A DNA stretch of 34,600 bases from a virus (lineage: Duplodnaviria > Caudoviricetes), in the IMG/VR virus record IMGVR_UViG_3300027128_000012, positions 1 to 34,600 of that record; one strand, 5' to 3'. Below are positions 20,051-34,600 of this stretch, piece after piece; the first letter of the stretch is position 1, and every line of letters begins with the position of its first letter. A program made the position numbers and the translations under genes. A model generated the notes under the pieces. That model ran no database searches and was not told the origin of the DNA. It saw only the letters and a list, made by a program, of their open reading frames with translations.

Positions 20051-20057
20051 GTTCAAC

Positions 20058-20192: not shown

Positions 20193-20196
20193 AACC

Positions 20197-20805: not shown

Positions 20806-20823
20806 ACCTAAAATAAAAAATTA

Positions 20824-20903: not shown

Positions 20904-20908
20904 CCTTT

Positions 20909-20985: not shown

Positions 20986-21005
20986 ATCGTTGTCTTGATG
21001 TGGTC

Positions 21006-21034
21006 ATTATACCGCTTTACAACAACCACGTCAA
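21006..21034 (-). promoter_or_regulatory. sigma70 promoter for tRNA(CAT)-tilS unit
   Basis: TTGACG-17 nt-TATAAT. Confidence 0.8.
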
Positions 21035-21042
21035 GAACTTTT

Positions 21043-21312: not shown

Positions 21313-21313
21313 A

Positions 21314-21910
21314 TCAAACTTCCTCTAAGCCGTATGGTACAAGAATATTTTCCAATTCTACCACCTTACGCTCACCATTGTCAAACATCACTTCAATTAC
21401 ATTTGATGGCATATTGTAATCATAACGATAGCGATTACATACCTTCACATACTCTTGTGATGGTTTATACCATACGGTGTCAACACAGATAGAACTTGCA
21501 TAAAAAGCTTCAAAACCATGTTCATCCCATTCACCATCCAAGTCCACTTGGCTTATAATAGAAAAATCTTCATGTGGTGAACGCAATGACATAAAAAAGT
21601 CATATGTGTTTTTTGCCATTTCCATTGATATGAAATCAAACTCTTCTGCATACTTTCTTCCACGTTGAAATGAAACCCCAATAAGAGTACCATCCAAAAA
21701 GTACACTGCGAGGCCAACCATAGTATCAGTACACAGCCAAGGTGTTACCCAATATGCGGTAATATGTTCCTTTATTTTATCATAATAATCATAATGATTA
21801 AAATTAATATTCAATGCTGTTGTAATAGCATCAATATCAATAGATTTTTCATTACGACTTGTTTTCTTGACATTTTGTGCCAGTTCAATGAGTTTCATCA
21901 TTCGTCCCAA
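21314..21910 (-). CDS. Hypothetical phage protein
   Basis: WLCTDTMVGLAVYFLDG motif; operon context. Confidence 0.75.
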   Translation of the reverse strand: MGRMMKLIELAQNVKKTSRNEKSIDIDAITTALNINFNHYDYYDKIKEHITAYWVTPWLCTDTMVGLAVYFLDGTLIGVSFQRGRKYAEEFDFISMEMAKNTYDFFMSLRSPHEDFSIISQVDLDGEWDEHGFEAFYASSICVDTVWYKPSQEYVKVCNRYRYDYNMPSNVIEVMFDNGERKVVELENILVPYGLEEV

Positions 21911-22296
21911 AAAATTTGTTTGAAATTAAGACTTTTTTCATAATTGTCCTTGGTGTTACAGGACATCATAATGTCATAAATTTCTTCATCAGTTCGCTTC
22001 AAAGAAATGCGAATTGGAACCTGCGACCACTTGTTGAAACACTTCTTAAAATCAACAGCCAAAAAGCCCAAACAGTTAATATAATTGTAATCGCTAGTTC
22101 CAGTCAAAGCACATAAACCCTTATGGTTTTCAATCCACAATAAAACTACAGGATGGTCAATACCTTCTACCTTTTGGATTTCAGTGGTTAATTCACATTT
22201 GCATTTCTTTTTAATTAGAAAATTATATAGTGATTCAACACGCAAGTTATCTTCGGCAAGTTTATGTAGAATCTGGGTTTTACTCAGTTTAGACAT
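21898..22296 (-). CDS. Hypothetical protein
   Basis: 132-aa ORF overlapping its neighbours. Confidence 0.7.
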   Translation of the reverse strand: MSKLSKTQILHKLAEDNLRVESLYNFLIKKKCKCELTTEIQKVEGIDHPVVLLWIENHKGLCALTGTSDYNYINCLGFLAVDFKKCFNKWSQVPIRISLKRTDEEIYDIMMSCNTKDNYEKSLNFKQIFWDE

Positions 22297-22789
22297 TTTT
22301 ATTCTCTAACAGGTTTTTCAAGTGATCAATTGGCTTTAAGTCTTGTATAGCCAAATTGTAACAATCCGCCCTCACAACAAAGTTATTAGACGGGTCTATT
22401 TGCCCTTTTTGCATAAACTTCGCTTTTTTAAAGTATGCCTCTTTTGGCATCCATCCCAAAATCCAACAAGTATCCTGACATATGCGGGTAAAGACGTAAG
22501 CATTACACTTTTGTTTCGTATTATATGCCGCTATCGAACACTCATAATGAGGCTTTGGTGGTGATGTACACTCTTTGGTCTTAACGTCAAGTTTAGCACC
22601 ATGCATCATTATATCATAGTCATATGTATTTTCAACACATGCATTAAGATAATTTGCAACAATTTGTTCCCCCATGAACCCAACAAGATTGCCTTCGCCT
22701 TGACGAATAGAGTTGTTCAACCTACCCATTTCATCAGCTTTCTCTTGTGCCCTTTCACGTATATCTTGTGTTATTTTAATTTCTATCAT
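22289..22789 (-). CDS. PD-(D/E)xK nuclease-like phage protein
   Basis: GFMGEQIV, YDYDI, LDVKTK. Confidence 0.65.
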   Translation of the reverse strand: MIEIKITQDIRERAQEKADEMGRLNNSIRQGEGNLVGFMGEQIVANYLNACVENTYDYDIMMHGAKLDVKTKECTSPPKPHYECSIAAYNTKQKCNAYVFTRICQDTCWILGWMPKEAYFKKAKFMQKGQIDPSNNFVVRADCYNLAIQDLKPIDHLKNLLENKNV

Positions 22790-23103
22790 TATTTGCCATT
22801 CAACATCACAATACTTTCATTTATGCGGGTTATCTTTTCAAACAATAAGTTCTTACGGGTAGACACATACCATTCAACTTCTTCTTTTGAGGCGGGCGCA
22901 AAATTATAAGAGAATGTATCAATTATTATGTTAGTAAAATGTATTTTATCCTCACCATCAGTAATCAATGGATCGTATACATTCATTCTAACATTATTGA
23001 AAACGCATGACACAATATACAACTTATTAATTTGTAATGCCTTGTTACCAAAGGTGTCTACGCACCTTACAAGTTGTTCTTCTTGGAACACTGTGGAGTT
23101 CAT
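22789..23103 (-). CDS. Hypothetical protein
   Basis: 104-aa ORF, stop/start overlap. Confidence 0.65.
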   Translation of the reverse strand: MNSTVFQEEQLVRCVDTFGNKALQINKLYIVSCVFNNVRMNVYDPLITDGEDKIHFTNIIIDTFSYNFAPASKEEVEWYVSTRKNLLFEKITRINESIVMLNGK

Positions 23104-23104
23104 A

Positions 23105-23443
23105 TCAAATTTTATCTCGGATTTCTTTTAATACTTCAACCAATTTCTCATCCGCAAAACATTCCCTCATAGATTTCATTTCTTCACCACCAGAATAAAA
23201 TGCAATCATCTTGTCAATTTCAACTAGAAGAGGATTATCAACAACCTTGGCGGATTCTAGACATGTAATCATGGTAGTAACATAATCATATATTGAATCT
23301 GTATCAGCACGACTTTGCAAACTAATAAGACTATGTAAAGCACGTTTCACAAAAATATCATGAAAAACTTGACTACCATTGTCAGAAATCCAACAAAGAT
23401 CAGACTCCGGAATATCAATTTCAATAACAATATGTTTTTTCAT
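23105..23443 (-). CDS. Hypothetical protein
   Basis: Likely start MKKHIVIEI after AAGGTG. Confidence 0.65.
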   Translation of the reverse strand: MKKHIVIEIDIPESDLCWISDNGSQVFHDIFVKRALHSLISLQSRADTDSIYDYVTTMITCLESAKVVDNPLLVEIDKMIAFYSGGEEMKSMRECFADEKLVEVLKEIRDKI

Positions 23444-23444
23444 A

Positions 23445-23642
23445 TCAAGACACCTTAGCGTGTGAGGACAAAGCCTTTTCAGCCATTTTAGCACATGAGA
23501 ATCCACGACTATGACCAAGACCATAACCGAACTCAACAATGCTCTTTAAAGCCTGTTCCAGTTCGGTTATGCGTTTTGATTCGGGTGTAATATTACGCCA
23601 TTTAGATACTGCTTCTACAAACAGTTTATCATCATTGGTCAT
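23445..23642 (-). CDS. Small hypothetical protein
   Basis: 65-aa ORF after promoter 23710-23738. Confidence 0.6.
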   Translation of the reverse strand: MTNDDKLFVEAVSKWRNITPESKRITELEQALKSIVEFGYGLGHSRGFSCAKMAEKALSSHAKVS

Positions 23643-23709
23643 TTTTGATTCTCATGCAAATTTGTTAACTTGAACGAGATATACACATGGTAATCTCTAC
23701 TATGCGTAC

Positions 23710-23738
23710 AGTTTACCATGTTAGGGAGAAGGTGTCAA
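23710..23738 (-). promoter_or_regulatory. sigma70 promoter
   Basis: TTGACA-17 nt-TAAACT with TG. Confidence 0.75.
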
Positions 23739-23742
23739 GGAT

Positions 23743-23889
23743 TTAGCGGGGATATCCTATAGGATGTGATTCAGCCAAGTCACCCATAATATCAGCAGAA
23801 CTTGGATTTTCTTCTTTATTGTCTTCTGGAATTACAAAAACAGTTTCGCCATTCTTTGTTCTTTCCAAATATTCAGATGCAGTGATCAT
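23743..23889 (-). CDS. Small 48-aa hypothetical protein (not in ORF track)
   Basis: GAGGT SD; MITASEYLERTKNGETVFVIPEDNKEENPSSADIMGDLAESHPIGYPR*. Confidence 0.55.
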   Translation of the reverse strand: MITASEYLERTKNGETVFVIPEDNKEENPSSADIMGDLAESHPIGYPR

Positions 23890-23901
23890 TACTTTTACCT
23901 C

Positions 23902-23977
23902 TGGTGCCGCCAGTGGGACTCGAACTCACAACCTACGGATTACGAAACCGTTGCTCTACCACTTGAGCTATAGCGGC
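23902..23977 (-). tRNA. tRNA-Thr(CGT)
   Basis: GCCGCTA/TGGCGGC-ACCA; ACGGT TT CGT AA TCCGT. Confidence 0.93.
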
Positions 23978-23991
23978 ATATGCGTAATTTC

Positions 23992-24324
23992 TTACGCTAA
24001 TGAATCAAGGATTTCTCCCAATTCCGTTTTACAATCAGTATATGCATAATAGTCCTCTGCATACAGTTTTTTCAATTGTTCGACAGAAGCGGACTCCATA
24101 TCAAATTGACCTTCCAAACCATAGCACGAACAATGTGATGCATATACTGTGAATAACTCACCAGATTCAGTATGCTTTAGAAGCACGAAAGACCAGCCCT
24201 CGTAATACCCTATTGCATATGATGCTAGTAATATTTCATAACCATTCAATCTATCCGCAGTGATATTAAACTCTCGCAAAACATCATCTAGCGAATTAAA
24301 ATCGTGTAAAAATATAGTATTCAT
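23992..24324 (-). CDS. Hypothetical phage protein
   Basis: YYEGWSFVL...ASHCSCYGLEGQF; start MNTIFLH after GAGG. Confidence 0.75.
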   Translation of the reverse strand: MNTIFLHDFNSLDDVLREFNITADRLNGYEILLASYAIGYYEGWSFVLLKHTESGELFTVYASHCSCYGLEGQFDMESASVEQLKKLYAEDYYAYTDCKTELGEILDSLA

Positions 24325-24375
24325 GTTAATTTCCTCTGTGGTTGATAAATCAAACACTTACACATTGGAAATCGG

Positions 24376-24474
24376 TGCTACCTGCCTGACTCGAACAGGC
24401 CACCTGCGGGTTATCATTACTGAAACCTTGTCTCAGAAACTAAGCCGCTGCTCTACCAGATGAGCTAAGGTAGC
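24376..24474 (-). tRNA. tRNA with 26-nt insertion in anticodon loop (intron-like or pseudo-tRNA); identity Thr(AGT) or Ile(GAT) unresolved
   Basis: Perfect GCTACCT/AGGTAGC acceptor, D and T arms; 33 nt between anticodon stem strands; ends ACCG. Confidence 0.8.
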
Positions 24475-24584
24475 ATTTCTAGAGTTATCGTACCTAGATC
24501 GGACATCACCCACGGGATATTAAGAGTATGACTCTCTTCTTATCATGCATATCCTGCACTATGCGGTATGATGGCCGCAAGTAT

Positions 24585-24902
24585 TCAATCTTTATATAGT
24601 ACAATAAAATCATCAGTCATGCAACAATACGATGATTTCATTAATGGTTCTTTTGTAACAAAATCCACAAATGTTTCTGTATTATATGGATTATAATAAG
24701 CCTTTTTCAAGAAACCTGCAATTGGCTGGTTTTCTATTATATATCCTTTAACATACGCATGCACATTTTTAGTCTTTGTTAATAATACCTTTTCACGACC
24801 TTTTGCGTTAACAACATATGAAACATTTCTTAAAAACAAAGGTTCATAAGAATGTGCTACCACCAAACCATTTTGGCGTATCGACCAACATTTCTTAGTC
24901 AA
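24585..24902 (-). CDS. Conserved hypothetical phage protein
   Basis: WSIRQ, KNVHAYVKG, YNPY; frame stays open upstream through PVQVYRNL, so the true start is uncertain. Confidence 0.7.
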   Translation of the reverse strand: MTKKCWSIRQNGLVVAHSYEPLFLRNVSYVVNAKGREKVLLTKTKNVHAYVKGYIIENQPIAGFLKKAYYNPYNTETFVDFVTKEPLMKSSYCCMTDDFIVLYKD

Positions 24903-24933
24903 ATTACGATAAACTTGTACTGGTTTAGTTTTA

Positions 24934-25176
24934 TCAAAAGGATAACGTATTCGAATTTTTAATACCTTCTTTGATTTTAGTCATAATGGCATCACCAAAT
25001 ATTTCCATTATATTGATGCCATCAATTTTTGCATCTTGTGCAAGTTCAACATTGAAAGCACCATTAATTACAAAATTTATTACTGGTGTAAATGTTTCGT
25101 TATCAATACTTTTATATAAGTTTACATGAATATTTTCGTTTAGATAATTTTCTAATTTTTGTTTTATATCACTCAT
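24934..25176 (-). CDS. Small hypothetical protein (paralog of next gene)
   Basis: MSDIKQKLENYLNENI...IDNETFTP. Confidence 0.7.
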   Translation of the reverse strand: MSDIKQKLENYLNENIHVNLYKSIDNETFTPVINFVINGAFNVELAQDAKIDGINIMEIFGDAIMTKIKEGIKNSNTLSF

Positions 25177-25191
25177 TTACTATTATCACTT

Positions 25192-25434
25192 TTAATTATT
25201 TAAAGTAGCATTGGACAATTTATCTAAAATTGTCTTCCCAACAATTTCTTTACCATTTGCGGAAATTACAGTTAAATCTTGTAATATTTCAATATTAAGT
25301 TTACATGATATATCAAAATGCAAAGTTGGTATAAAAATATCATCATCAATCTTTCGTTCAACTTTAACTATTTTTATATTTTCATTCAAATACTCTTCGA
25401 TTTGTGCTGTTAATTGTTGTTTTAAATCGCTCAT
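25192..25434 (-). CDS. Small hypothetical protein (paralog of previous gene)
   Basis: MSDLKQQL...EYLNENI...IDDDIFIP. Confidence 0.7.
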   Translation of the reverse strand: MSDLKQQLTAQIEEYLNENIKIVKVERKIDDDIFIPTLHFDISCKLNIEILQDLTVISANGKEIVGKTILDKLSNATLNN

Positions 25435-25442
25435 TTTTATTC

Positions 25443-25871
25443 TCAATCTTTACCTAGTGTATAATCATGTGGTACAATGTCATCACGATTTGGAAAAGAA
25501 TCTTCTTCAATTCGTGGTTCTGTATTACGAATAAATTCAGACAACTTATAGTAAAGCCATTGTGGGAAATAACCATCTTCATCACGATTATATCCAACTT
25601 CAATTGCGGCCTTTACTAGTTCATAACCATTATAAGCATTCAAATATAATGAGTTTTCAAAATCTTCTGGCAAAATGTATAGCTTTTCATTTTGTTCGGC
25701 TGTCATTTTCGGTGTTGTTTCCCACACAAAAGTAGGATCATTGCACTGAATCATACCCCAATCACCAACCTTCATAATATCACCGTCACGGCGGGCACGA
25801 ATTAGATACCAACCCGGCAATACTTCACCAAAATACAAAGGGTTGACCAAACATTGCTCACACATTAGCAT
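25443..25871 (-). CDS. Hypothetical protein
   Basis: 142-aa ORF beginning MCEQC. Confidence 0.7.
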   Translation of the reverse strand: MLMCEQCLVNPLYFGEVLPGWYLIRARRDGDIMKVGDWGMIQCNDPTFVWETTPKMTAEQNEKLYILPEDFENSLYLNAYNGYELVKAAIEVGYNRDEDGYFPQWLYYKLSEFIRNTEPRIEEDSFPNRDDIVPHDYTLGKD

Positions 25872-25901
25872 TCTCTTTATGTAGGATATGTATATTTTAA
25901 A

Positions 25902-25977
25902 TGGTGAGTCCGGTGGGTTACGATCCCACTACCTACTGGTTAAAAGCCAGTTGCTCTGCCGATTGAGCTACGAACCC
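25902..25977 (-). tRNA. tRNA-Lys(TTT)
   Basis: GGGTTCG..ACTGG CT TTT AA CCAGT..ACCA; atypical T loop ATCGTAA. Confidence 0.9.
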
Positions 25978-26001
25978 ATATGCCGTAAAAACGGCAGCAA
26001 C

Positions 26002-26107
26002 AGGAAAAATTGTTCCCTTTACCAAGTTGGGAACATATCAAAAACGTTGCCGAAGCTAGTTTCCGATTGGAGTCGAACCAATAATATTGATTTGCTGTTA
26101 TTTTCCT
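26002..26107 (-). ncRNA. ACAGCAA-scaffold element 2: permuted tRNA elbow with no anticodon arm
   Basis: AGGAAAA-TAACAGCAA ... ATTGG TTCGACT CCAAT, CGGAAAC/GTTTTTG closed by GC-TTCG-GC, GTTCCC-AACTTGGTAAA-GGGAAC ... TTTTCCT. Confidence 0.8.
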
Positions 26108-26116
26108 AAAATCAAC

Positions 26117-26255
26117 TGGATGGAATTTTCTATACGCTGCTCTACCTGATTGAGCTACACCCCCAATGAAACATTACAACAATCGGTGGGGGCGACAGGA
26201 TTTGAACCTGTAACCAACGGCTTATCATGCTAGAAATGGTTGCTGTGACCATCCA
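26117..26255 (-). ncRNA. ACAGCAA-scaffold element 3: circularly permuted tRNA-Ile(GAT)-like
   Basis: TGGATGG-TCACAGCAA ... AT GAT AA GCCGT..ACAGG TTCAAAT CCTGT CGCCCCC ACCG, spacer, GGGGGTG TA GCTC..GAGC A GCG ... CCATCCA. Confidence 0.85.
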
Positions 26256-26278
26256 AAACCTTAAAAATCTTATAACAC

Positions 26279-26394
26279 TGGATAGAGTTTATCTTGTTCT
26301 ACCGATTAAACTATACGCCTTACGACGCAGCCGGACTCGAACCGACACCTTTGGCTTTTACAGAGCTACGATATTTTTTTGCTGTTACTATCCA
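26279..26394 (-). ncRNA. ACAGCAA-scaffold element 4: permuted tRNA-Tyr(GTA)-like with acceptor stem capped by GNRA loop
   Basis: TGGATAG-TAACAGCAA ... GCT CT GTA AA AGC..GTCGG TTCGAGT CCGGC TGCGTC-GTAA-GGCGTA TA GTTT AATCGGTA GAAC ... CTATCCA. Confidence 0.85.
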
Positions 26395-26431
26395 AAACTA
26401 AGTATTACTACCACAACTTACAAAAGTTGTT

Positions 26432-26506
26432 TGGCACTGCGTAGGGGAATCGAACCCCTGTGATCGAGTAGACAGCCCGACATAATAACCTCTATATGAA
26501 CGCAGT
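26432..26506 (-). tRNA. tRNA-Asp(GTC)
   Basis: ACTGCGT/ACGCAGT-GCCA; TCGGG CT GTC TA CTCGA. Confidence 0.9.
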
Positions 26507-26509
26507 ATA

Positions 26510-26713
26510 TCACTTAACACGTTGCATCACAAGTGGTTTATCACCCAAGTAAAACGTGTCACAACTACCATCTTCATAAACCAGATAAATCCCAGCCCAT
26601 GAAGATTTTACATCTTTGATGATTTTTCCATTATGTCTAATTTTGGAATATTTCATCATATTCAACAAACATTCACCACTTTCCCCACTTATGGGTACAT
26701 TCATATTAGTCAT
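26510..26713 (-). CDS. Small hypothetical protein
   Basis: 67-aa ORF between RNA elements. Confidence 0.55.
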   Translation of the reverse strand: MTNMNVPISGESGECLLNMMKYSKIRHNGKIIKDVKSSWAGIYLVYEDGSCDTFYLGDKPLVMQRVK

Positions 26714-26725
26714 GTTTTTCTCAAC

Positions 26726-26781
26726 AGGTTGTATTTTTTCTTTTTTTGAAAATAAAAAATTAAAATTGCTGTCAACAACCT
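26726..26781 (-). ncRNA. ACAGCAA-scaffold element 5: minimal form, loop triplet TTC (Glu-like)
   Basis: AGGTTGT-TGACAGCAA-TTTTAATTTTTTA TT TTC AA AAAAAG..-ACAACCT. Confidence 0.75.
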
Positions 26782-26792
26782 AAAACCTTATG

Positions 26793-27062
26793 CTATTCTT
26801 TTGGCAGACCATTTACAGTCAAATACTCAAGGATAGCATTTGAAAACTTCTCCGAATGATACATCACAAATGAATTGTAATCCTCATTCTCCCAACGCCA
26901 AACACCATTTTCTAGAACAGCCATTCCTTTCATATGTGTGTCTTCTTGTCCATTCTTACGGGTTTCTTCAATTTCAGCACAATCATCACTAAAATATACA
27001 ATTTCCAATCCTTCACCCATTACCTCAAAATAATAGGTTATTACTTTATTATATGCTGTCAT
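26793..27062 (-). CDS. Hypothetical protein
   Basis: 89-aa ORF. Confidence 0.65.
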   Translation of the reverse strand: MTAYNKVITYYFEVMGEGLEIVYFSDDCAEIEETRKNGQEDTHMKGMAVLENGVWRWENEDYNSFVMYHSEKFSNAILEYLTVNGLPKE

Positions 27063-27078
27063 TTTAAGTGCCTTTGTT

Positions 27079-27155
27079 TGGTTGGGTGAGTGGGATTTGA
27101 ACCCACGATTCTCCGGGTAAGAGCCGGGAACTTTAAGCCTCTAAGTTACCACCCA
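27079..27155 (-). tRNA. tRNA-Lys(CTT)
   Basis: TGGGTGG/TCACCCA-ACCA; CCCGG CT CTT AC CCGGA. Confidence 0.88.
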
Positions 27156-27166
27156 ATGATTTTTAC

Positions 27167-27220
27167 AGGTTGTATTTTTCTTTTTTCCAAATAAAAAATT
27201 AAAATTGCTGTTAACAACCT
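27167..27220 (-). ncRNA. ACAGCAA-scaffold element 6: minimal form, loop triplet TGG (Pro-like)
   Basis: AGGTTGT-TAACAGCAA-TTTTAATTTTTTA TT TGG AA AAAAG..-ACAACCT; near-identical to element 5 except for the triplet. Confidence 0.75.
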
Positions 27221-27226
27221 AAAACT

Positions 27227-27466
27227 TTAAGAAAACCAATCAGGCTTTCTAAATCTGTCAGTGAAGACATATTCATCTACTTCTTCACTCATGTCAATGT
27301 CATATGCATCAGGCCAATATGTCATCAACTGTTGCATATCATCAACATAAGCTACAATAACCGAATGACCATATAATGTTCCACCAGTACACCAGTAAGG
27401 GTGCTTAATCGGCCACACTACAGGACGATAATCTTCAACTGGAACATAAAATCGTGCACGATACAT
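27227..27466 (-). CDS. Conserved hypothetical phage protein
   Basis: DYRPVVWPIKHPYWCTG...FTDRFRKPDW. Confidence 0.75.
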   Translation of the reverse strand: MYRARFYVPVEDYRPVVWPIKHPYWCTGGTLYGHSVIVAYVDDMQQLMTYWPDAYDIDMSEEVDEYVFTDRFRKPDWFS

Positions 27467-27559
27467 TTTTATCTCACTGTTTATATTTTGTTGTGAAATT
27501 AAACCATGAGTATATTTTCACAACATTTTCTAAACACACATTTAAGCATGTTTAATTAA

Positions 27560-27766
27560 TCGGTAGGCACGACACTAGCTTGCACCCAATCAGTCCACCA
27601 GCACTAAACTGTGCCTTTCTCTAGCACCCCACCATAAAGGAGGGAATGAGGACTAACGGTTTCTACACATTATCGTATTGTATGGGATTAGCCGCATCCA
27701 CAACGTCTGTGAACTTAGTACGCATAAGTCACAACTTTTAACACCACTACTGGCTTCCAATGGTGT
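27560..27766 (-). ncRNA. Candidate structured non-coding RNA
   Basis: GC-richer stretch with no ORF-track entry and several hairpins, starting at the 3' end of tRNA(CAT). Confidence 0.4.
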
Positions 27767-27843
27767 TGGTATCTCAAGCTGGGTTCGAACCAGCGACCTG
27801 CCGATTATGAGTCGGATGCTCTAACCACCTGAGCTATTGAGAT
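27767..27843 (-). tRNA. tRNA(CAT), Met or Ile2
   Basis: ATCTCAA/TTGAGAT-ACCA; TCCGA CT CAT AA TCGGC. Confidence 0.9.
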
Positions 27844-27851
27844 ATCACGTA

Positions 27852-28172
27852 TCACATGGTCACATATTCAATCGGAATATTGTTTTTCTTGCAATAATCA
27901 ATTTCATATGATACACCAGATGAATCTTCCCATCCGTCAATCATCAAGACAACCATTTTATTACATCTGCTCAACAAAGTCAAGGAATAATTTTCCCAAA
28001 ATGCCGAATCAGAAGGTACAGGATGTCTCATCACCACTTCATGTGCCATCAACGGCGTGACAGGAACATGACCCTGCATCATCAGAGCCGCAAAGTGTTT
28101 GTATACAGAACCCATACGTTTCTCAATTACGGATTTGTCTGGATGTGAATATGGTGCTGATATATAAATCAC
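27852..28172 (-). CDS. DUF1937 / nucleoside deoxyribosyltransferase-like fold protein
   Basis: IYISAPYSHPD, GWEDSSGVSYEI. Confidence 0.8.
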   Translation of the reverse strand: MIYISAPYSHPDKSVIEKRMGSVYKHFAALMMQGHVPVTPLMAHEVVMRHPVPSDSAFWENYSLTLLSRCNKMVVLMIDGWEDSSGVSYEIDYCKKNNIPIEYVTM

Positions 28173-28204
28173 TTTACAACTCTCAATTCGTTTTCGATGG
28201 TGCC

Positions 28205-28232
28205 ATTATATCACATCTACACCATCTGTCAA
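28205..28232 (-). promoter_or_regulatory. sigma70 promoter internal to tRNA region
   Basis: TTGACA-16 nt-TATAAT with TG. Confidence 0.75.
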
Positions 28233-28244
28233 CTAATTTCTAGG

Positions 28245-28317
28245 CACTATGTACGAGAATTGAACTCGTGTCTCCGGCGTGACAGGCCAGTATACTCGAC
28301 CACTGTACTAACATAGT
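28245..28317 (-). tRNA. tRNA-Asp(GTC), no encoded CCA
   Basis: ACTATGT/ACATAGT-G-CCT; CTGGC CT GTC AC GCCGG. Confidence 0.88.
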
Positions 28318-28320
28318 ATT

Positions 28321-28494
28321 GTAGTTAGCTGGTTCCTAACTTTTCACTACTTGTTCTTTACGAACTGGCCGTGAAAGGCGCTACCCAGACCACATCTGGA
28401 TTTAACGAGCGGGGTGGCTTTTGCACACTCGCTTTAAAGTTTTTAGCCAATCTTACGATTGTTTCCATCTAGTGCCTCGTGGCGGCAAACTTTA
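28321..28494 (-). ncRNA. Candidate structured non-coding RNA
   Basis: GC-richer spacer with multiple short helices including CAATC-GTAA-GATTG and CCAGA-TGTGG-TCTGG. Confidence 0.4.
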
Positions 28495-28502
28495 TACTAG
28501 AC

Positions 28503-28575
28503 CTCCCAGAACAGGACTCGAACCTGTGACCCGTTGATTAACAATCAACCGCTCTACCAACTGAGCTATCTGGGA
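28503..28575 (-). tRNA. tRNA-Asn(GTT), no encoded CCA
   Basis: TCCCAGA/TCTGGGA-G; GTTGA TT GTT AA TCAAC. Confidence 0.92.
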
Positions 28576-28581
28576 ATTATA

Positions 28582-28768
28582 TTACCACTTAATTTTTCTA
28601 CCATTTTCCCAACCGGGTTCTAATACAGAATCCTTTGGTACTTTTTTACATTTTTTCATCTCTTTGTTATGAACCCATATAACCGTCATCTAAATCATCG
28701 GTTTTATGTTTTCCTATGTAGATTTTACCATTTTTCAAGTTAGTAATCTTGTATATTGTATAATACAT
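28582..28768 (-). pseudogene. Internally deleted GIY-YIG (Seg-like) homing endonuclease
   Basis: MYYTIYKITNLKNGKIYIGKHKTDDLDDGYMGS* joined out of frame to IWVHNK...PGWENGRKIKW*. Confidence 0.85.
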
Positions 28769-28844
28769 GTAAGTGCCATTATGACTGTTATTCTTACATG
28801 TATATACTTTGTTCGATACCTACCCTAGAATAAGTATCTAAATG

Positions 28845-28927
28845 CTCTCAGAAGTGGGATCGAACCACTGCACCTTACGGTGTCCTCCGGTTAACAGCCG
28901 GGAACATTACCACTCTGTCATCTGAGA
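28845..28927 (-). tRNA. tRNA-Asn(GTT) with long variable arm, no encoded CCA
   Basis: TCTCAGA/TCTGAGA-G; CCGG CT GTT AA CCGG; 16-nt variable region with CACC-GTAA-GGTG. Confidence 0.85.
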
Positions 28928-29028
28928 ATCACAACATCAAATCGAACTCATCCTGCTATATTTTCCGCTGTTCTCCAATAGTTTCCAATAATTGATCAGA
29001 TTATTTTTCACTATCTTCCTTGATGTTA

Positions 29029-29104
29029 TGGTGCTGTTAGAAGGAATCGAACCCTCATTACCGGACTACAAAACCGGCATAATAAGCCTTTATATGATAA
29101 CAGC
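29029..29104 (-). tRNA. tRNA-Thr(TGT)
   Basis: GCTGTTA/TAACAGC-ACCA; CCGGT TT TGT AG TCCGG. Confidence 0.9.
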
Positions 29105-29108
29105 ATAT

Positions 29109-29185
29109 TGGTAGGTCTACTCGGAATTGAACCGAGAACCGCCGAATTATGAGTTCGGTGCTCTAACCACTTGAGCTATAGACCT
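29109..29185 (-). tRNA. tRNA(CAT), likely Ile2
   Basis: AGGTCTA/TAGACCT-ACCA (Ile-like AGG start); CCGAA CT CAT AA TTCGG. Confidence 0.9.
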
Positions 29186-29195
29186 ATCGCAATTT

Positions 29196-29271
29196 TGGTG
29201 CTCGGTGTTGGACTCGAACCAACATCGCTCTCCTTGTAAGGGAGACGTATAACCTCTCTACGCAACCGAGC
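29196..29271 (-). tRNA. tRNA-Val(TAC)
   Basis: GCTCGGT/ACCGAGC-ACCA; TCTCC CT TAC AA GGAGA. Confidence 0.92.
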
Positions 29272-29277
29272 AATAAC

Positions 29278-29337
29278 AGGAAACATTTTACGTTTTTCAT
29301 TAAAAGTGAAATGTATAAATTTTGCTGTTAGTTTCCT
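29278..29337 (-). ncRNA. ACAGCAA-scaffold element 7: isolated Lys(TTT) anticodon stem-loop
   Basis: AGGAAAC-TAACAGCAA ... TTTCA CT TTT AA TGAAA ... GTTTCCT. Confidence 0.85.
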
Positions 29338-29339
29338 TT

Positions 29340-29414
29340 TGGTTGGTCTACTGGGATTCGAACCCAGAAAAACGGATTAAAAGTCCGCTGTGATAACCGT
29401 TTCACTATAGACCA
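29340..29414 (-). tRNA. tRNA-Lys(TTT)
   Basis: TGGTCTA/TAGACCA-ACCA; GCGGA CT TTT AA TCCGT. Confidence 0.9.
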
Positions 29415-29426
29415 ATTGTAACATTT

Positions 29427-29501
29427 TGGCGGGCCTACCAAGATTCGAACTTGGGCCAAAAGTTTAGAAGACTCTTATGCTATCCATTACACCATAAGCC
29501 C
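29427..29501 (-). tRNA. tRNA-Arg(TCT)
   Basis: GGGCTTA/TAGGCCC-GCCA; AGAGT CT TCT AA ACTTT. Confidence 0.92.
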
Positions 29502-29502
29502 G

Positions 29503-29539
29503 AAACAAAAAAGCCTAGTTGTTTAGACTAGGCTTTGTG
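29503..29539 (-). terminator. Attenuator terminator directly in front of the first tRNA
   Basis: CACAAAGCCTAGT-CTAAACA-ACTAGGCTTTTTTGTTT. Confidence 0.85.
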
Positions 29540-29587
29540 TTCGCATCAGCAGTTGGTTTAAAAGTCCCAACCCTCGTCACAAAGCCT
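29530..29587 (-). promoter_or_regulatory. Antiterminator hairpin
   Basis: AGGCTTTGTG (29587-29578, leader codons 39-42) is the exact complement of CACAAAGCCT (29539-29530, terminator 5' arm); inner GGTTGG/CCAACT helix. Confidence 0.8.
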
Positions 29588-29701
29588 TCCACTATTTCTA
29601 TCATTTTTATTTGTAACTATATTTTTGACAATAGTATCCACTGTCACAGTTTTTACTGTGTCCTTCGTGGTTATGTCAGTTACAAAGTTGATAGTGTTCA
29701 T
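29558..29701 (-). CDS. 47-aa leader peptide of tRNA operon (not in ORF track)
   Basis: MNTINFVTDITTKDTVKTVTVDTIVKNIVTNKNDRNSGRLCDEGWDF*; AGGT SD; lies between promoter and terminator. Confidence 0.8.
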   Translation of the reverse strand: MNTINFVTDITTKDTVKTVTVDTIVKNIVTNKNDRNSGRLCDEGWDF

Positions 29702-29747
29702 TTTCTCTTACCTATTAAGCAATTCGTATTAATTGCGGTGTCGTACT

Positions 29748-29776
29748 ATTATATAGTGTTTTTTCGTCAATGTCAA
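29748..29776 (-). promoter_or_regulatory. Consensus sigma70 promoter (proximal) of tRNA operon
   Basis: TTGACA-17 nt-TATAAT with A-tract upstream. Confidence 0.9.
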
Positions 29777-29837
29777 GCACTTTTTCAAACTTTTTTAAGA
29801 TATTTTTCAAAAAGTTCAACTCGTCTTGATGTGATGC

Positions 29838-29866
29838 ATTCTACACATAGTTTTAGCTGTTGTCAA
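29838..29866 (-). promoter_or_regulatory. sigma70 promoter (distal) of tRNA operon
   Basis: TTGACA-17 nt-TAGAAT; shares AAGTGCTTGACA with the proximal promoter. Confidence 0.8.
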
Positions 29867-29910
29867 GCACTTGTTGTAAATATTATATATTTTTTCACAT
29901 GGTAATAAAA

Positions 29911-30633
29911 ATGAAGAGTTACAGTGAGTTCTTAAACGAAAGTTTTAATATATTCAAGAAACATGATAAAATAGTTCCAACTAATAAAGCAGAAGAACAT
30001 CTGGATTTTGACTATAGTCATCACAATGAACATTTAAAACCGTTTGACGAAGAACATTTTCATCAACATGCACCATCTATAAATGGTAATTTACAGAAAA
30101 AAGCATTAGATGCATATAAGCATGATTCATACAACATGAATGGTTCATTATGGGGCGGTAAAAATGCAGTTCATAATGACGACCATCATATTGAACATGT
30201 TTCGGCTTTATTAAAATCAACACCGGCAGCAAAAAAAGACTTTCATGTTTATACTGGCGTCAAAGCTGATAGTGAAAGGCTTAAAGGTGATTTGCATATT
30301 CCGGCATTCACTTCTGCATCTGCGGATCATAGAATAGCTGGTTTGTTTTCATCAGGAAAAACAGTAGAAAAAATGAAAACAGAAAGCGGAAACGAGAAAG
30401 ATGTTAATGTAAGACATGTTATTAAAATACATGTTAAAAAAGGACAACAAGTTGGTGGTTATGTTGGTGATATTGGCCAGCGACAACATGAAAGAGAGTT
30501 TTTAATAAACAAGGGACACACATTACATTTTACAGGAAAAATTGAAGATCATGTTGAACAAGACAGCACATTTGGCGGAACTCCAAAAATAGTAAGAGTA
30601 CACCACGCAACCATAACACCGGATGATGAATAA
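29911..30633 (+). CDS. ADP-ribosyltransferase 1 (VIP2/Alt-Mod-like R-S-E clade)
   Basis: MKSYSEFLNE start; YKHDSYNMNGSL, FHVYTG, AFTSAS, HEREFLI; TAAATA at 29877-29882. Confidence 0.85.
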   Translation: MKSYSEFLNESFNIFKKHDKIVPTNKAEEHLDFDYSHHNEHLKPFDEEHFHQHAPSINGNLQKKALDAYKHDSYNMNGSLWGGKNAVHNDDHHIEHVSALLKSTPAAKKDFHVYTGVKADSERLKGDLHIPAFTSASADHRIAGLFSSGKTVEKMKTESGNEKDVNVRHVIKIHVKKGQQVGGYVGDIGQRQHEREFLINKGHTLHFTGKIEDHVEQDSTFGGTPKIVRVHHATITPDDE

Positions 30634-31310
30634 TGAGTAAATTTAGAGCTTTAATTGAAGGAAAAATAAAACCTGAAAAACATATAAGTTTTTTAGATAT
30701 AAGTGATGACAGAAAACGTGAAGATGATTTAATAGCATCTCATTTACCAAATGTTTCTAATACATCACATAGCAACGCCATCAGATCATATAGTGCTAGT
30801 TCTAAAGGTCTAAACCGTTATCTATGGGAAAACAAACACGATGCAAATCACAAGAATAGTTCATTAGACGACGACGCAAAAACTCTTTCAGATATTCTAA
30901 AAACAGCACCCGCTGCCAAAGAGGATTTCCATGTTTACACTGGAATAAACTCAAAAAGAAATAAAATTGAAAAAGGGGACTTACACATTCCGGCTTTCAC
31001 CTCAACATCAACAAAAGATTTTGTGGCAGGTGACTTTGGAGTAAAATATCACTCTTTAGAAGACCACCCAAACAAGAATGGTGATATACAACCGCATATG
31101 ATTCATCATATATTAAAGATACATGTCAAAAAAGGACAACAGGTTGGTGCGTATATTGCACCCCATAGTAACTATAGCGACGAACATGAGTTCTTAATAA
31201 ATAAAAATCACACGATACATGTTTCCGATGATTATGAAGACCATCCGGGAGAGGGCAATAGAATTTTCAGAATACACCATGCAACAATATCAATGGGGAA
31301 CGATAAATGA
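30633..31310 (+). CDS. ADP-ribosyltransferase 2
   Basis: YSASSKGLNRYL, FHVYTG, AFTSTS, DEHEFLI. Confidence 0.85.
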   Translation: MSKFRALIEGKIKPEKHISFLDISDDRKREDDLIASHLPNVSNTSHSNAIRSYSASSKGLNRYLWENKHDANHKNSSLDDDAKTLSDILKTAPAAKEDFHVYTGINSKRNKIEKGDLHIPAFTSTSTKDFVAGDFGVKYHSLEDHPNKNGDIQPHMIHHILKIHVKKGQQVGAYIAPHSNYSDEHEFLINKNHTIHVSDDYEDHPGEGNRIFRIHHATISMGNDK

Positions 31311-32020
31311 AAACTTTTAAAGAACATTTAAACATGATATATTCTTTAAATGAGCAAGTGGTAAATCCACCTATAAAATTTGATCACAATGACAATGAAG
31401 ACCCTGATAAAGAGCTTTTCTTCATACATCATGCGCCTGAAACAAAAGACAATAATCAAATCGACGCTATTAAAAGTTATTGCGACCACTCAACAAGTAT
31501 GAACAAATCTTTATGGAAGAAAAAGTTTGACTTCATAGAAGATGAAAAAAATGCGTCATTACTAACAGATGCCCTTAAAACAGCACCTGCCGCAAAAGAA
31601 GATTTTCATGTTTATACAGGGGTGAATGCGAATAGGAATGAAATTAAAAAAGGAGATTTACATATTCCAGCCTTTACATCAGCGTCATACTCCCCAATAA
31701 TAGCAGGAAGATTCGTCAGACCTATTGAAAATAGGCACACGGAAGAGTACCATCCGGATGAAGATGGAAATATGGTTAAACATACTGTCCATCATATATT
31801 AAAGATACACGTGAAAAAAGGACAACAGGTTGGTGCGTATATCGCCGATCATTCTTTTGCACCACACGAAAAAGAGTTTTTGATTAATAAAGGGCATACC
31901 ATACATATTAGCGGGGATTATGAAGACCATCATAATCCACCAGAAGAAAATGGGTATAGTAGAACAAGAAGAATATATAGAATACACCATGCAACCATAA
32001 CACCGGATGATGATAAATGA
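31307..32020 (+). CDS. ADP-ribosyltransferase 3
   Basis: MKTFKEHLN; FHVYTG, AFTSAS, HEKEFLI. Confidence 0.85.
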   Translation: MKTFKEHLNMIYSLNEQVVNPPIKFDHNDNEDPDKELFFIHHAPETKDNNQIDAIKSYCDHSTSMNKSLWKKKFDFIEDEKNASLLTDALKTAPAAKEDFHVYTGVNANRNEIKKGDLHIPAFTSASYSPIIAGRFVRPIENRHTEEYHPDEDGNMVKHTVHHILKIHVKKGQQVGAYIADHSFAPHEKEFLINKGHTIHISGDYEDHHNPPEENGYSRTRRIYRIHHATITPDDDK

Positions 32021-32676
32021 ATTTTCTAAACTATTTTATTAATTTATTAGAACAATATAATTTTGACGGTGAAGTAATAGAAAACGAACATCCAGATTCA
32101 TTTTTCAGCGAACATCAACCATCGCATGAAAGCACAAAAGATGATGATAGCCTTTATTATTACACCGAAGACTCCAAAACAATTAATAGAAATTTATGGA
32201 AAGGTGAAAAACATGATATGCATGATAAAATAAGCAACGTTCTAAAATCAGGAAGGCCAGCAAAAAAAGATTTTCATGTATTCACTGGTGTAAACGCTAA
32301 TAAAAATGAATTAAAAGGAAATCTTCACATACCTGCTTTTACTAGCACGTCTACAAGAGTATCAGAAGCTGCTGACTTTACACCTGTGAAGGGTAGCAGA
32401 CATACTACAGAAAAACACGTTAATGATGGTGTTGAAAAAGAATATAACATACACCACATAATAAAAATACATGTGAAAAAAGGACAACAAGTTGGTGCAT
32501 ACATATCAGATTTTTCACAGTTCCCTAAAGAAAGAGAGTTCCTTATTAATAAAGGACACACATTGCACCTTTCTGGTGAACATGAAGACCACCATATGCC
32601 ACCATACAGAGAAGGGCTAAATCCACGAATATATAGAATACACCACGCAACAATAACTATGGATGATGAAAAATGA
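32017..32676 (+). CDS. ADP-ribosyltransferase 4
   Basis: YTEDSKTINRNL, FHVFTG, AFTSTS, KEREFLI. Confidence 0.85.
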   Translation: MNFLNYFINLLEQYNFDGEVIENEHPDSFFSEHQPSHESTKDDDSLYYYTEDSKTINRNLWKGEKHDMHDKISNVLKSGRPAKKDFHVFTGVNANKNELKGNLHIPAFTSTSTRVSEAADFTPVKGSRHTTEKHVNDGVEKEYNIHHIIKIHVKKGQQVGAYISDFSQFPKEREFLINKGHTLHLSGEHEDHHMPPYREGLNPRIYRIHHATITMDDEK

Positions 32677-32843
32677 AAAGCTATAATGATTTCTTAAATG
32701 AAAGCAAGTCTAAAGAAAAGCCAAAAGACGAATATATCGAATTGGGGATTGGAGATAGGGAAAGGGAAGTTAAAGAACCCAAAGAACCGAAAGAAAACAA
32801 AGATGAATATATCGAGTTGGGTATAGGTGACAGAAAACGCTAA
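32673..32843 (+). CDS. 56-aa peptide with duplicated KDEYIELGIGDR motif (not in ORF track)
   Basis: ATGA overlap with ART4; MKSYNDFLNESKSKEKPKDEYIELGIGDREREVKEPKEPKENKDEYIELGIGDRKR*. Confidence 0.8.
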   Translation: MKSYNDFLNESKSKEKPKDEYIELGIGDREREVKEPKEPKENKDEYIELGIGDRKR

Positions 32844-32844
32844 C

Positions 32845-33177
32845 TTAGTTAGCGTCTGTTGTCCAATTTGTTAATTCAAATGTAACATGGAAAAATATTA
32901 CATTATCTTTTGGATCACGTTCACATTTAACAGAAAATCCACCAGAAGAATTAAAACCTTTATTAGTATCACCAAATATAACTGCTTCATATGCTTCTCT
33001 CATAGACTTTCTAACATATTGGCGCATGTCTGGAATAGTAGGAACTCCACTGACAGAAAACCATTGCCAATCTAGAAAATCCATGACTTTTTGGACTTTC
33101 TCAAAATCAAACCAGTCCATGACTTCATCCATTCTTTCTTGAAGATAATCTGTTTGTTCTTGTGTTAATTTTTTCAT
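32845..33177 (-). CDS. Conserved hypothetical phage protein
   Basis: FDFEKVQKVMDFLDWQW...VPTI...SSGGF. Confidence 0.75.
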   Translation of the reverse strand: MKKLTQEQTDYLQERMDEVMDWFDFEKVQKVMDFLDWQWFSVSGVPTIPDMRQYVRKSMREAYEAVIFGDTNKGFNSSGGFSVKCERDPKDNVIFFHVTFELTNWTTDAN

Positions 33178-33195
33178 ATAAACCTCGAACTATAG

Positions 33196-33224
33196 ATTAT
33201 AAAACAACATGAAGTATTTGTCAA
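33196..33224 (-). promoter_or_regulatory. Consensus sigma70 promoter
   Basis: TTGACA-17 nt-TATAAT. Confidence 0.85.
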
Positions 33225-33229
33225 TAATT

Positions 33230-34081
33230 TTATAAAGTACCCACAGGCTTCTTATCGAGAGTTTCCTTTCCAATAAAAGTGCCATAACGACGATCTGGCT
33301 CAACAAATGCTAGTATATGAGTGTCGCCATTAGCCTTGGCTTGCGCTATACGGTGGTTTCCACCATAAACCGTATACTTATCTTCATCTGCATCGTATTT
33401 CACCTCTATAGGCTGTTTAACAGGCTTCCCGTAGTGATATTTTCCATCATCGCTTTCATTATTTGTTGGTGTTGGTTCTAAACCATCTAATTTGTGCATG
33501 GGAACATAACGTTCATATGCAGATGATAAATGACCATCAGCACCACGCTCTAACATACTTTTTTGAGAATACGCATAACTACGAAGTTTCTTTTGTTCTT
33601 CCGCTGATTCCATCAATCCAGTCATTTTTATACTTTCAGGATCAAATGCAATCAAAGAAGTACCCCTACCCTCATGCGTATTAGAATAAGAAACACCATC
33701 ATAACCCTTATCAATCAAACGCTGACGGATTTCTTGATTATATTGTTTACGGTGTTTATATGCCTCATTATGAGTATACTTATCATGCTCATCTTTAGAA
33801 ATCAATTTCTTTTTCAATAATTGATCAGCTATATTATCCGCATGAAAAGAACCAACATCAGTAAGTCTCAATGGATTATAAACCTTTATACGTGCTTTAT
33901 AGATATGGCCTTCACCACTCAATCTATTTTTAAGGACATGTTGTGCTTGATCCTTAGAACCAAAATGTGCGCCCAAATCACCCAATGTTGTGTCAAATTT
34001 ATCAAAATGCTTATTGGTAGCATGATACCAAGTTTTTCCTTCCTGATAATATTCAATCAATAAATCTTTAAAAGTGGCCAT
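33230..34081 (-). CDS. Fusion of ART-PolyVal-like ADP-ribosyltransferase domain and ParB/Srx-like domain
   Basis: WYHAT..FDKF..GAHFG..NPL..GYDGV..AFDPESIK; then PIEV..YTVYGGNHRIAQAK; N-terminus MATFKDLLIE. Confidence 0.75.
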   Translation of the reverse strand: MATFKDLLIEYYQEGKTWYHATNKHFDKFDTTLGDLGAHFGSKDQAQHVLKNRLSGEGHIYKARIKVYNPLRLTDVGSFHADNIADQLLKKKLISKDEHDKYTHNEAYKHRKQYNQEIRQRLIDKGYDGVSYSNTHEGRGTSLIAFDPESIKMTGLMESAEEQKKLRSYAYSQKSMLERGADGHLSSAYERYVPMHKLDGLEPTPTNNESDDGKYHYGKPVKQPIEVKYDADEDKYTVYGGNHRIAQAKANGDTHILAFVEPDRRYGTFIGKETLDKKPVGTL

Positions 34082-34100
34082 ATATCAATCCTTTTTCAAT

Positions 34101-34108
34101 TATTTATA
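34101..34108 (-). promoter_or_regulatory. T4 late promoter TATAAATA
   Basis: Exact T4 late consensus 20 nt upstream of ATG 34081. Confidence 0.75.
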
Positions 34109-34143
34109 TAACCACAATTACGTATTCTCAAAAAGCAATGATG

Positions 34144-34599
34144 TTAACCATTCAGTTCCGCATACATGCGTTTATAATTGTCCTCGTACTTTCTGTTGAA
34201 TCCCATTGTTGATAGCCAATATTCATCCGTTTTATCTTTGTTACTGATGCGTGAAGATAATCTAAGATAGTTTTTGTATATCTCAACTTGGCTTAATCGT
34301 ATCTTCTGAAAATATTCATGACTTATGAATGAACCATGCATGACGCATTCTGTAATAAGCTTCTTCAATATATAACCATGACCATAATGTGAAACAACAA
34401 CTCCACTATCAATCAATGTAGTACACGTTTCTTCAAGTATTTCTAAACGTGTTTTGTTTTCAAGTTCACCAAGTACCAACAAAAGTCTCTGTAAACCAAA
34501 ACCAACATCTATACATGTTCCTAGAGTGTTGACGATATTACCTATCTCAATATTATTCTTATAGAACTCCGTACAGTAACCGCCTATACTACATCCGAC
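34144..34599 (-). CDS. Alanyl-tRNA synthetase-like protein, 3' part (5' end outside window)
   Basis: Frame open from the edge: IGGYCTEFY..IEIGNIV..CIDVGFGLQRL..GHGYILKKLI, resembling AlaRS GPCSEIFY, EIWNLV, IDTGMGLERL, GRGYVLRRII. Confidence 0.75.
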   Translation of the reverse strand, partial: VGCSIGGYCTEFYKNNIEIGNIVNTLGTCIDVGFGLQRLLLVLGELENKTRLEILEETCTTLIDSGVVVSHYGHGYILKKLITECVMHGSFISHEYFQKIRLSQVEIYKNYLRLSSRISNKDKTDEYWLSTMGFNRKYEDNYKRMYAELNG

Positions 34600-34600
34600 C

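Follow-up and report, generated by a model that had tools for sequence, protein, structure and literature searches.

The window, which is the whole 34.6-kb contig and the full stretch of DNA analysed here, carries on its minus strand two promoters, a short open reading frame (ORF), a predicted intrinsic terminator, eight tRNA genes and a third promoter, in that order. The first two promoters are of the sigma70 type: P1 (29838-29866, -35 at 29866) agrees with the consensus at 11 of 12 bases and P2 (29748-29776, -35 at 29776) at all 12, as the original prediction of two tandem near-consensus promoters had it. Promoter-like sites as such are not above chance in the region (62 found against 55 expected), and perfect ones number only three, two of which are P2 and the next strong promoter (28205-28232, minus strand, 12/12 with an extended -10), which ends the block that would depend on read-through. 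No T4 late promoter was found on the minus strand from 29900 to 14000. After the promoters, as in known attenuators, comes a short leader ORF (29558-29701, 47 codons, 47 aa) with a Shine-Dalgarno-like AGGT at 29710-29713, 8 nt before its start codon. The ORF, originally described as unannotated, matches no Pfam and no PHROG family.

The composition of this ORF is highly biased. Control codons 2-36 (29594-29698) encode Thr, Val, Asn, Ile, Lys, Asp or Arg(AGA) at 34 of 35 positions, and codons 1-36 comprise nine Thr, six Asn, six Val, four each of Ile, Asp and Lys, and single Met, Arg and Phe codons. This agrees with the earlier count, in which 35 of the first 36 codons specified Met or one of the seven amino acids, the Phe being the exception, and a recount likewise found each synonymous codon of Thr, Val, Ile, Lys, Asn and Asp within codons 1-36. 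Against a proteome frequency of 0.41 for in-set codons (T/V/N/I/K/D and R(AGR)), 34/35 corresponds to a binomial probability of 1e-12, and the best 35-codon window in 39 phage ORFs holds 25. Among 200000 base shuffles of the leader the maximum was 29/35, and shuffles preserving base use per codon position reached 34 in 24 of 200000. Two overlapping ORFs were rejected as by-products: a 128-aa antisense ORF (29519-29905), attributable to a leader devoid of the Leu and Ser codons whose complements would stop it, and a 29-aa ORF (29515-29604) preceded by no Shine-Dalgarno-like site.

Between the leader and the tRNA genes lies a predicted intrinsic terminator (29503-29536, minus strand), a 10-bp stem followed by a T tract. 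From 22000 to 31700 the minus strand has no other terminator-like site than this one, whose stem spans 29536-29510, and its position 1-2 nt before tRNA-Arg is as originally described, the T tract ending at 29503 and the tRNA starting at 29501. Codons 39-42 of the leader form the 5' strand of a predicted antiterminator (29578-29587), all ten bases of which pair with the 3' strand at 29539-29530, around an inner 6-bp helix (29551-29572) that holds the stop codon in its loop. The claim that these codons are the exact complement of the terminator 5' arm holds for the pairing, and needs correction as to its extent: only the last seven bases of the 3' strand (29536-29530) belong to the terminator stem, and the remaining three (29539-29537) fall immediately upstream of it. 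The terminator folds at -12.1 kcal/mol and the antiterminator (29587-29529) at -22.1 kcal/mol, with 0 of 200 shuffles as stable in either case, and when the 200 nt upstream were shuffled by dinucleotide, 11 of 2000 shuffles produced a complement of at least 10 nt to the 5' arm region. Mutual exclusion of the two structures was borne out in that folding gives either one or the other, with the reservation that a weak 6-bp hairpin (-4.2 kcal/mol) persists directly before the T tract when the antiterminator has formed, so that in this model the opening may be partial.

A ribosome scan, in which a ribosome was placed at each codon and only the RNA 3' of it was folded, with assumed footprint sizes, predicts a switch. 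For a 12-nt footprint the terminator probability is at most 0.36 with the ribosome at codons 1-35 (at most 0.03 at codons 26-35), rising to 0.94 or more once codon 36 is reached; across footprints from 18 to 9 nt the switch point lies between codons 33/34 and 36/37. A ribosome on the control codons would free the antiterminator and one further on would cover it, and masking the 3' end of the leader switches the fold to the terminator, as anticipated. The predicted flip at codon 35/36 coincides with the end of the biased codon run, so the whole of that run sits where a stall would open the gate. In attenuators of the trp/phe/thr type the untranslated RNA terminates; here no strong 1:2 protector hairpin was found, and untranslated leader RNA started at P1 or P2 has terminator probabilities of only 0.002 and 0.017, predicting read-through.

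The eight tRNA genes between the terminator and the 28232 promoter are those originally listed, all on the minus strand: Arg(TCT) at 29427-29501, Lys(TTT) at 29340-29414, Val(TAC) at 29196-29271, a CAT-anticodon tRNA at 29109-29185, Thr(TGT) at 29029-29104, two Asn(GTT) genes at 28844-28927 and 28502-28576, and Asp(GTC) at 28243-28317, the last ahead of the promoter. The control codons are rich in the amino acids of these genes. The CAT tRNA is likely Ile2, as judged from the TilS-like lysidine synthetase gene in the window (20197-20805, minus strand; TIGR02432, 116.3 bits against a cut-off of 93.6) and from its E. coli matches, the longest of which are annotated as tRNA-Ile and the short ones as tRNA-Met. 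Identity of the leader set and the tRNA set, as first proposed, stands at the level of amino acids (34/35), with Phe6 lacking a tRNA in the window; at the level of codons it fails for ATC and ATT, which a CAT (Ile2) tRNA does not read. Past the 28232 promoter lie two further CAT tRNAs, Lys CTT and TTT, Asp, Thr CGT and one uncertain gene, again with the amino acids of the leader set, only Pro (19554) falling outside it. As the minus strand shows no terminator-like site from 29500 to 22000, read-through may reach these genes as well, which would explain leader codons such as AAG and ACG.

The tRNA region contains several other elements. Rfam searches of 18000-34600 at E up to 0.1 returned only tRNA, YrlA, HDV-like, tmRNA-fragment and antisense-tRNA matches. 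The HDV-like match (28434-28501, minus strand, E 0.033, below the family cut-off) begins at the 3' end of the second tRNA-Asn, which lacks CCA, a placement that fits the theta ribozymes (PMC10879173). Between tRNA-Lys and tRNA-Val lies a small RNA (29335-29275, minus strand; 6505-6443 in the related contig L116) that lacks a tRNA body but presents a Lys(UUU) anticodon loop on top of a 5-bp stem, the stem showing one two-sided change in L116; it is a possible nuclease decoy, and elements with the same opening motif occur near 27220, 26790 and 26090. A tRNA gene at 24374-24474 (minus strand), with a counterpart at L116:3272-3372, bears a 26-nt hairpin insertion in its anticodon loop and is assigned to Gln, Ile or Met according to the settings used; the bodies of the two genes differ, and both insertions end alike before a GAT triplet. 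The block of eight tRNA genes itself contains a 37-codon homing endonuclease remnant (28670-28780, minus strand), and the L116 block has full-length HNH-like ORFs.

The phage itself is T4-like, with gp32, gp59 and gp33 homologues at 8082-10028, the gp32 having a top match of 42.6% identity among cultured phages and 40-48% in IMG/VR. The window has 36% G+C and 16 tRNA genes, every one on the minus strand, and its sequence is present in river metagenomes. Among cultured phages no close relative was found, the matches being limited to tRNA and promoter length, and neighbour-gene searches of IMG/VR and GTDB gave no useful relatives (L113 is devoid of tRNA genes). Two metagenomic contigs proved informative, 20.8 kb of each being compared: L114, a 91-kb contig of the same phage with 18 differences in 14,741 shared bases and none in the leader, and L116, a relative whose marker protein is 57% identical. 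Around the locus, tandem ADP-ribosyltransferase-family (Alt-like) genes (29860-32676, plus strand, and 33230-34081, minus strand) separate two tRNA clusters, and a TerC-like membrane protein with two tellurite-resistance-family genes occupies 15335-18699 (minus strand). An RlaP-family RNA-repair nucleotidyltransferase at 11485-12690, three YrlA (Y-RNA-like) matches below cut-off (20073-20158, 26132-26219 and 26263-26373) and a DUF2828/DUF7788 protein at L114:18132-19637 suggest, along with TilS, a tRNA repair and modification kit.

In river metatranscriptomes a contig covers the leader in all four runs examined (of 11 listed), and in all four the RNA contigs bridge the terminator into tRNA-Arg, none ending at the terminator. 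Their upstream ends lie at 29775, 29723, 29787 and 29814, and the segment 29888-30095 is covered in none of the four RNA runs and at least partly in three of four DNA runs. This fits transcription from P1/P2 with read-through, a weak indication, as such contigs show neither ends nor strand nor level and may include DNA. Two unannotated spacers within the tRNA block (28898-29029 and 28288-28456, minus strand) also carry contigs of high word depth and may represent further small RNAs.

The original proposal called for related phages with a short ORF of like composition and covarying hairpins, and L116 is a relative that keeps ORF, frame and pairing. It keeps both promoters (P1 at the same place, each at 10/12), the Shine-Dalgarno-like site in otherwise differing flanks, an ORF of 46 codons and the terminator stem without any change. 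While the upstream segments differ at 15/28, 41/98 and 26/76 columns (34-54%), the control codons differ at 9/105 and the terminator segment at 2/34. The antiterminator 5' strand has a single change, for which the 3' strand compensates (a G-C pair becoming A-U), and the inner helix keeps its pairs with a changed loop; over the two sequences 32 of 32 cells are paired, a figure equalled by 266 of 500 shuffles and not significant alone. The predicted fold flips at the equivalent codon. Within the control run every amino-acid change remains inside the leader set, and the codon is unchanged at 28 of 31 identical residues, compared with same-codon fractions of 0.45-0.64 in 11 of 13 other matched ORFs; the two outliers are a very similar ORF (0.80) and the antisense shadow of the leader (0.89). 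The first tRNA gene in L116 is unrelated and atypical, and it occupies the same place with the TCT anticodon kept. In L116 the Val and CAT tRNAs are separated by a 10/12 promoter-like site, and no tRNA-Asp was found within the 7.4 kb examined; the leader retains Thr, Ile, Asn and Asp codons despite both, and these two features count against a strict coupling of leader and tRNAs.

Nine homologous leader peptides of 46, 51 or 56 aa were found, as called proteins, so that an intact frame was partly selected for; the relatives from ENA/Logan (P0017-P0024) were compared as peptides only. The ten leader peptides fall into four clusters, are 77-87% identical and show in-frame indels of 1 to 10 residues, upstream of the tail. 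Their changes stay mostly within the set, the exceptions being one Ala, one Ser and added Phe in three. The antiterminator-encoding tail is invariant and always stands three codons past the last Arg of the control run. Phe6 is invariant too, and with no tRNA-Phe in the window it and the added Phe count against the attenuator reading. In the DNA runs X6, X9, X11 and X12 no variant was found in the leader ORF or the hairpins.

A second candidate leader-attenuator lies in the same phage about 2.6 kb past the window end (L114:17420-15840, minus strand; L116:20670-20050). Downstream of a perfect promoter, a 25-codon ORF (L114:17304-17227, minus strand) and a terminator (L114:17204-17179, minus strand) precede three GTA (Tyr) genes, three Glu(TTC) genes and a promoter-like site; the Tyr genes are atypical and were detected by relaxed ARAGORN and a motif scan. 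Tyr and Glu make up 6 of the 12 control codons (binomial 10^-2.9), as against 0 of 34 in the first leader, which bears out, within a single genome, the expectation that leader codons track tRNA content. The second leader is kept in L116, likewise before Tyr and Glu genes, with its first 21 codons identical; over both contigs 11/11 terminator and 13/13 antiterminator pairs are preserved, with one two-sided change in the terminator. At equilibrium the finished terminator wins for every ribosome position; it is in a nascent-RNA calculation alone that the antiterminator keeps the 5' arm, with ribosomes up to codon 13. Two opposite codon sets, each matching its own block, are the strongest single argument against chance and against a general sensor. 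An upstream 40-nt stretch (L114:17361-17320, minus strand) is identical in L116 and matches intergenic DNA, often in tRNA regions, of Yersinia, Acinetobacter, Pseudomonas and Vibrio phages; no leader was found at that stretch in the cultured phages that have it.

A blind pattern built from the antiterminator core, the 5' arm and the 3' arm, with no tRNA or ORF information, retrieved 55 loci from IMG/VR, with 47 distinct matches, 45 of them with at least 200 nt downstream. A same-strand tRNA follows within 350 nt in 5 of these 45, compared with 0 of 183 for a terminator-only control pattern (Fisher 2.5e-4; 124 loci from 2 of 64 collection parts, 193 strand matches, of which 184 could be used, less one excluded because it has the antiterminator), the control being one base stricter at each end and counting both strands of the hairpin. 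Of the five, L140 has an Asn/Gln leader before Gln, Asn and Gln tRNAs, and in L164 Tyr and Leu tRNAs follow a Ser/Leu/Tyr leader, with Ser genes 2.5 kb on that appear at a relaxed threshold only; with two of five blind matches codon-matched, tracking extends to other phages. L137 and L144 have leaders of 18-19 different amino acids before mixed tRNA arrays and are uninformative, and in L130 the leader shows no match (2/16) and a promoter follows the terminator. Leader-terminator-tRNA layouts occur in unrelated phages in IMG/VR (L140, L164/L172, L137/L143, L144 and L167), the tRNAs of L167 lying 495 nt downstream with a promoter after the terminator. The true leader-tRNA pairing scored best of 40320 permutations for eight leaders (including L167) and best of 720 for the six blind ones, where the ORFs had been chosen by eye after the tRNAs were seen; under a fixed rule with default tRNA calls it was best of 120, driven by L140 and L164. 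For L140, L137, L167 and L130 the terminator wins at equilibrium everywhere, and a switch appears only in the nascent-RNA calculation.

A search with the exact antiterminator pattern returned 32 loci, none with a tRNA, and a pattern based on tRNA-Arg gave no locus. Among 120 bacterial genome loci, 0 of 117 usable pattern matches had a tRNA downstream, so the sample gives no hint of a chromosomal version; one match is a Phe/Tyr-rich leader before prephenate dehydratase, a classical attenuator, and its retrieval indicates that the pattern picks up such elements. Among ten tRNA regions of cultured phages, nine had no terminator within 120 nt before the tRNA in a strict scan, which also missed the second leader of L116. 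The tenth, in Stenotrophomonas phage Moby (MN095772.1), has the layout: tRNA-Trp is directly preceded by an annotated terminator, and a 27-codon ORF goes unannotated in the record, the element (record 80483-80626; L424:8547-8690) lying ahead of 16 tRNA genes. Moby codons 2-19 specify 14 different amino acids, all among the 15 that the 16 downstream tRNAs represent, a match equalled in 1 of 200000 random draws (with frequencies from this window and a codon window picked post hoc). The region is at least 98.6% identical across 16 records. The predicted switch is weak (0.6-0.8 to 0.9) and no clear Shine-Dalgarno site is seen, which leaves Moby as a weaker candidate and a lead.

The best explanation of the locus is a leader-peptide attenuator acting as a feedback loop on tRNA supply, to which we assign a probability of about 0.82. 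The attenuator interpretation offered originally is well supported by sequence, since its computable predictions came out in favour: the folding switch, the conservation in L116 and the tracking of tRNAs by codons all agree with it, whereas the predicted read-through of naked RNA departs from the trp and phe models. Host RNA polymerase would start at P1 or P2 and, assuming coupled transcription and translation, the leader would be translated while still being transcribed. A ribosome stalled within codons 1-35 by slow decoding of Thr, Val, Asn, Ile, Lys, Asp or Arg would leave the antiterminator free and the terminator unformed, so that the tRNA block is transcribed; a ribosome at codon 36 or later would cover the antiterminator strand and let the terminator form; and RNA that is not translated at all would, from its folding, read through. 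Once made, the tRNAs would relieve the slow decoding and close the switch, a negative feedback, and the second leader would do likewise for Tyr and Glu tRNAs, the phage in effect monitoring its tRNA supply in blocks.

As to what trips the switch, we put the loss of working host tRNA, by anticodon nucleases or by tRNA breakdown during infection, at somewhat better than even odds. It is preferred because extra tRNA could not cure a lack of amino acid, because the blocks are not metabolic families, and because the phage carries TilS and the RlaP-family enzyme. No single nuclease named in PMC10264068 is described there as acting on the full set of seven tRNAs, which suggests a broad sensor. A reading that shares this mechanism and differs only in its trigger is that the switch senses amino-acid starvation, mainly in the aspartate family, and tunes tRNA output to nutrition. 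Classical attenuators do work in this way (PMC3082878). The leader's use of all synonymous codons also fits. Asp, Asn, Lys, Thr and Ile belong to one biosynthetic family, a further point in its favour, but Val and Arg lie outside that family, neither Tyr with Glu (the second leader) nor Ser with Leu and Tyr (L164) forms one, a missing amino acid would not be supplied by more tRNA, and the phage also carries the RNA-repair and lysidine enzymes; starvation is for these reasons a plausible but unlikely trigger.

Read-through of untranslated RNA would also be expected of a general sensor of translation failure, opened by any block of initiation or elongation, in which the codon match is a historical leftover. 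The two blind matches with leaders of 18-19 amino acids and the persistence of the L116 codons, though some of its tRNAs may have their own promoter, point the same way; yet such a sensor has no need of a 34/35 bias and would not yield two leaders of opposite codons each matching its own block, which makes it improbable. Still less probable is a small functional protein upstream of a leaky terminator, or a hairpin and U tract that process tRNA-Arg, with constant read-through in either case: the similarity of the leader peptides, the RNA contigs that cross the terminator in every run and the T tract abutting tRNA-Arg are compatible with it, but codons are conserved beyond residues, the peptide tolerates indels of 1 to 10 residues, and the codon-tRNA match, the compensatory change and the second leader are left unexplained. 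Chance in AT-rich intergenic DNA might be suggested by the low G+C content and by a control run that is 47% A; it is already refuted for composition and conservation, given that same-base shuffles never exceeded 29/35 and that the leader persists in L116 amid diverged upstream flanks.

Taking the feedback attenuator a step further, there is an even chance that large phages carry a modular tRNA thermostat, in which the leader of each block detects tRNAs destroyed by nucleases and has those replacements transcribed. The window phage would then have at least two modules, unrelated phages others and a cultured Stenotrophomonas phage group one, and leader codons would reveal the tRNAs that hosts target in nature. 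The reason for tRNA genes in phages is described as an open question between codon compensation and defence evasion (PMC10264068). Compensation of codon bias predicts constant expression; with an attenuator, the tRNAs would be called for only on a failure to decode their codons. At 250 nt the element is amenable to a reporter test in E. coli, the Moby group offers a cultured phage with its host, and the element would constitute a compact genetic sensor of tRNA damage.

Among known systems, the T-box riboswitch also reads tRNA charging through a terminator and an antiterminator, and it binds uncharged tRNA directly, without an ORF; Stem I, the specifier loop and the T-box antiterminator had no Rfam match in 18000-34600. 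The ilvGEDA leader (cited in PMC7815308) is, like thrL, an enterobacterial multivalent attenuator of amino-acid biosynthesis genes, and leaders of the thrL and ilv type sense two or three amino acids. In thrL, a short Thr/Ile leader ORF is followed by an antiterminator and an intrinsic terminator (PMC9291695). The phage locus shares with thrL and ilvGEDA the short leader ORF, control codons for several amino acids, the antiterminator and the intrinsic terminator; it differs in that they control biosynthesis genes and the phage element would control tRNAs, sampling seven amino acids over 35 codons. Where leaders of the trp/phe/thr type have biosynthetic enzymes or synthetases downstream, eight tRNA genes stand here instead. 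In pheL-pheA, segment 2 becomes available for the 2:3 antiterminator when the ribosome pauses on cognate codons (PMC3082878), and the same geometry is predicted for the phage leader; pheL, as described there, has a 1:2 pause/protector hairpin, whereas the phage leader has no strong protector and its naked RNA favours read-through.

Phe-tRNA synthetase is encoded by pheST. The E. coli pheMST operon provides a case of leader-peptide attenuation of a translation-machinery gene (PMC9291695), and as in the phage a leader peptide governs part of that machinery; pheMST controls the charging enzyme of one amino acid, the phage element tRNA genes themselves. A long tRNA operon switched by stress is known from Anabaena, where the trn operon, normally silent, is turned on under translational stress through TrcR (PMC10272220); that operon is plasmid-borne and governed at initiation by a DNA-binding repressor, with no codon specificity as described, whereas the phage would use a leader and a terminator. 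The likely purpose is given by work on phage tRNAs as a counter-defence against VapC, PrrC and colicins D and E5 (PMC10264068), namely the replacement of tRNAs destroyed in the host; that study treats tRNA sequence, not expression control, and the stem 'attenuat' is absent from its main text. A literature search, mostly without subscription papers, found no description of leader or attenuation control of tRNA genes. Attenuation by a leader peptide is textbook knowledge, and the new part, as read from the sequence, would be its target, tRNA genes in a phage, which would carry the mechanism beyond amino-acid operons, to tRNA genes and into viruses.
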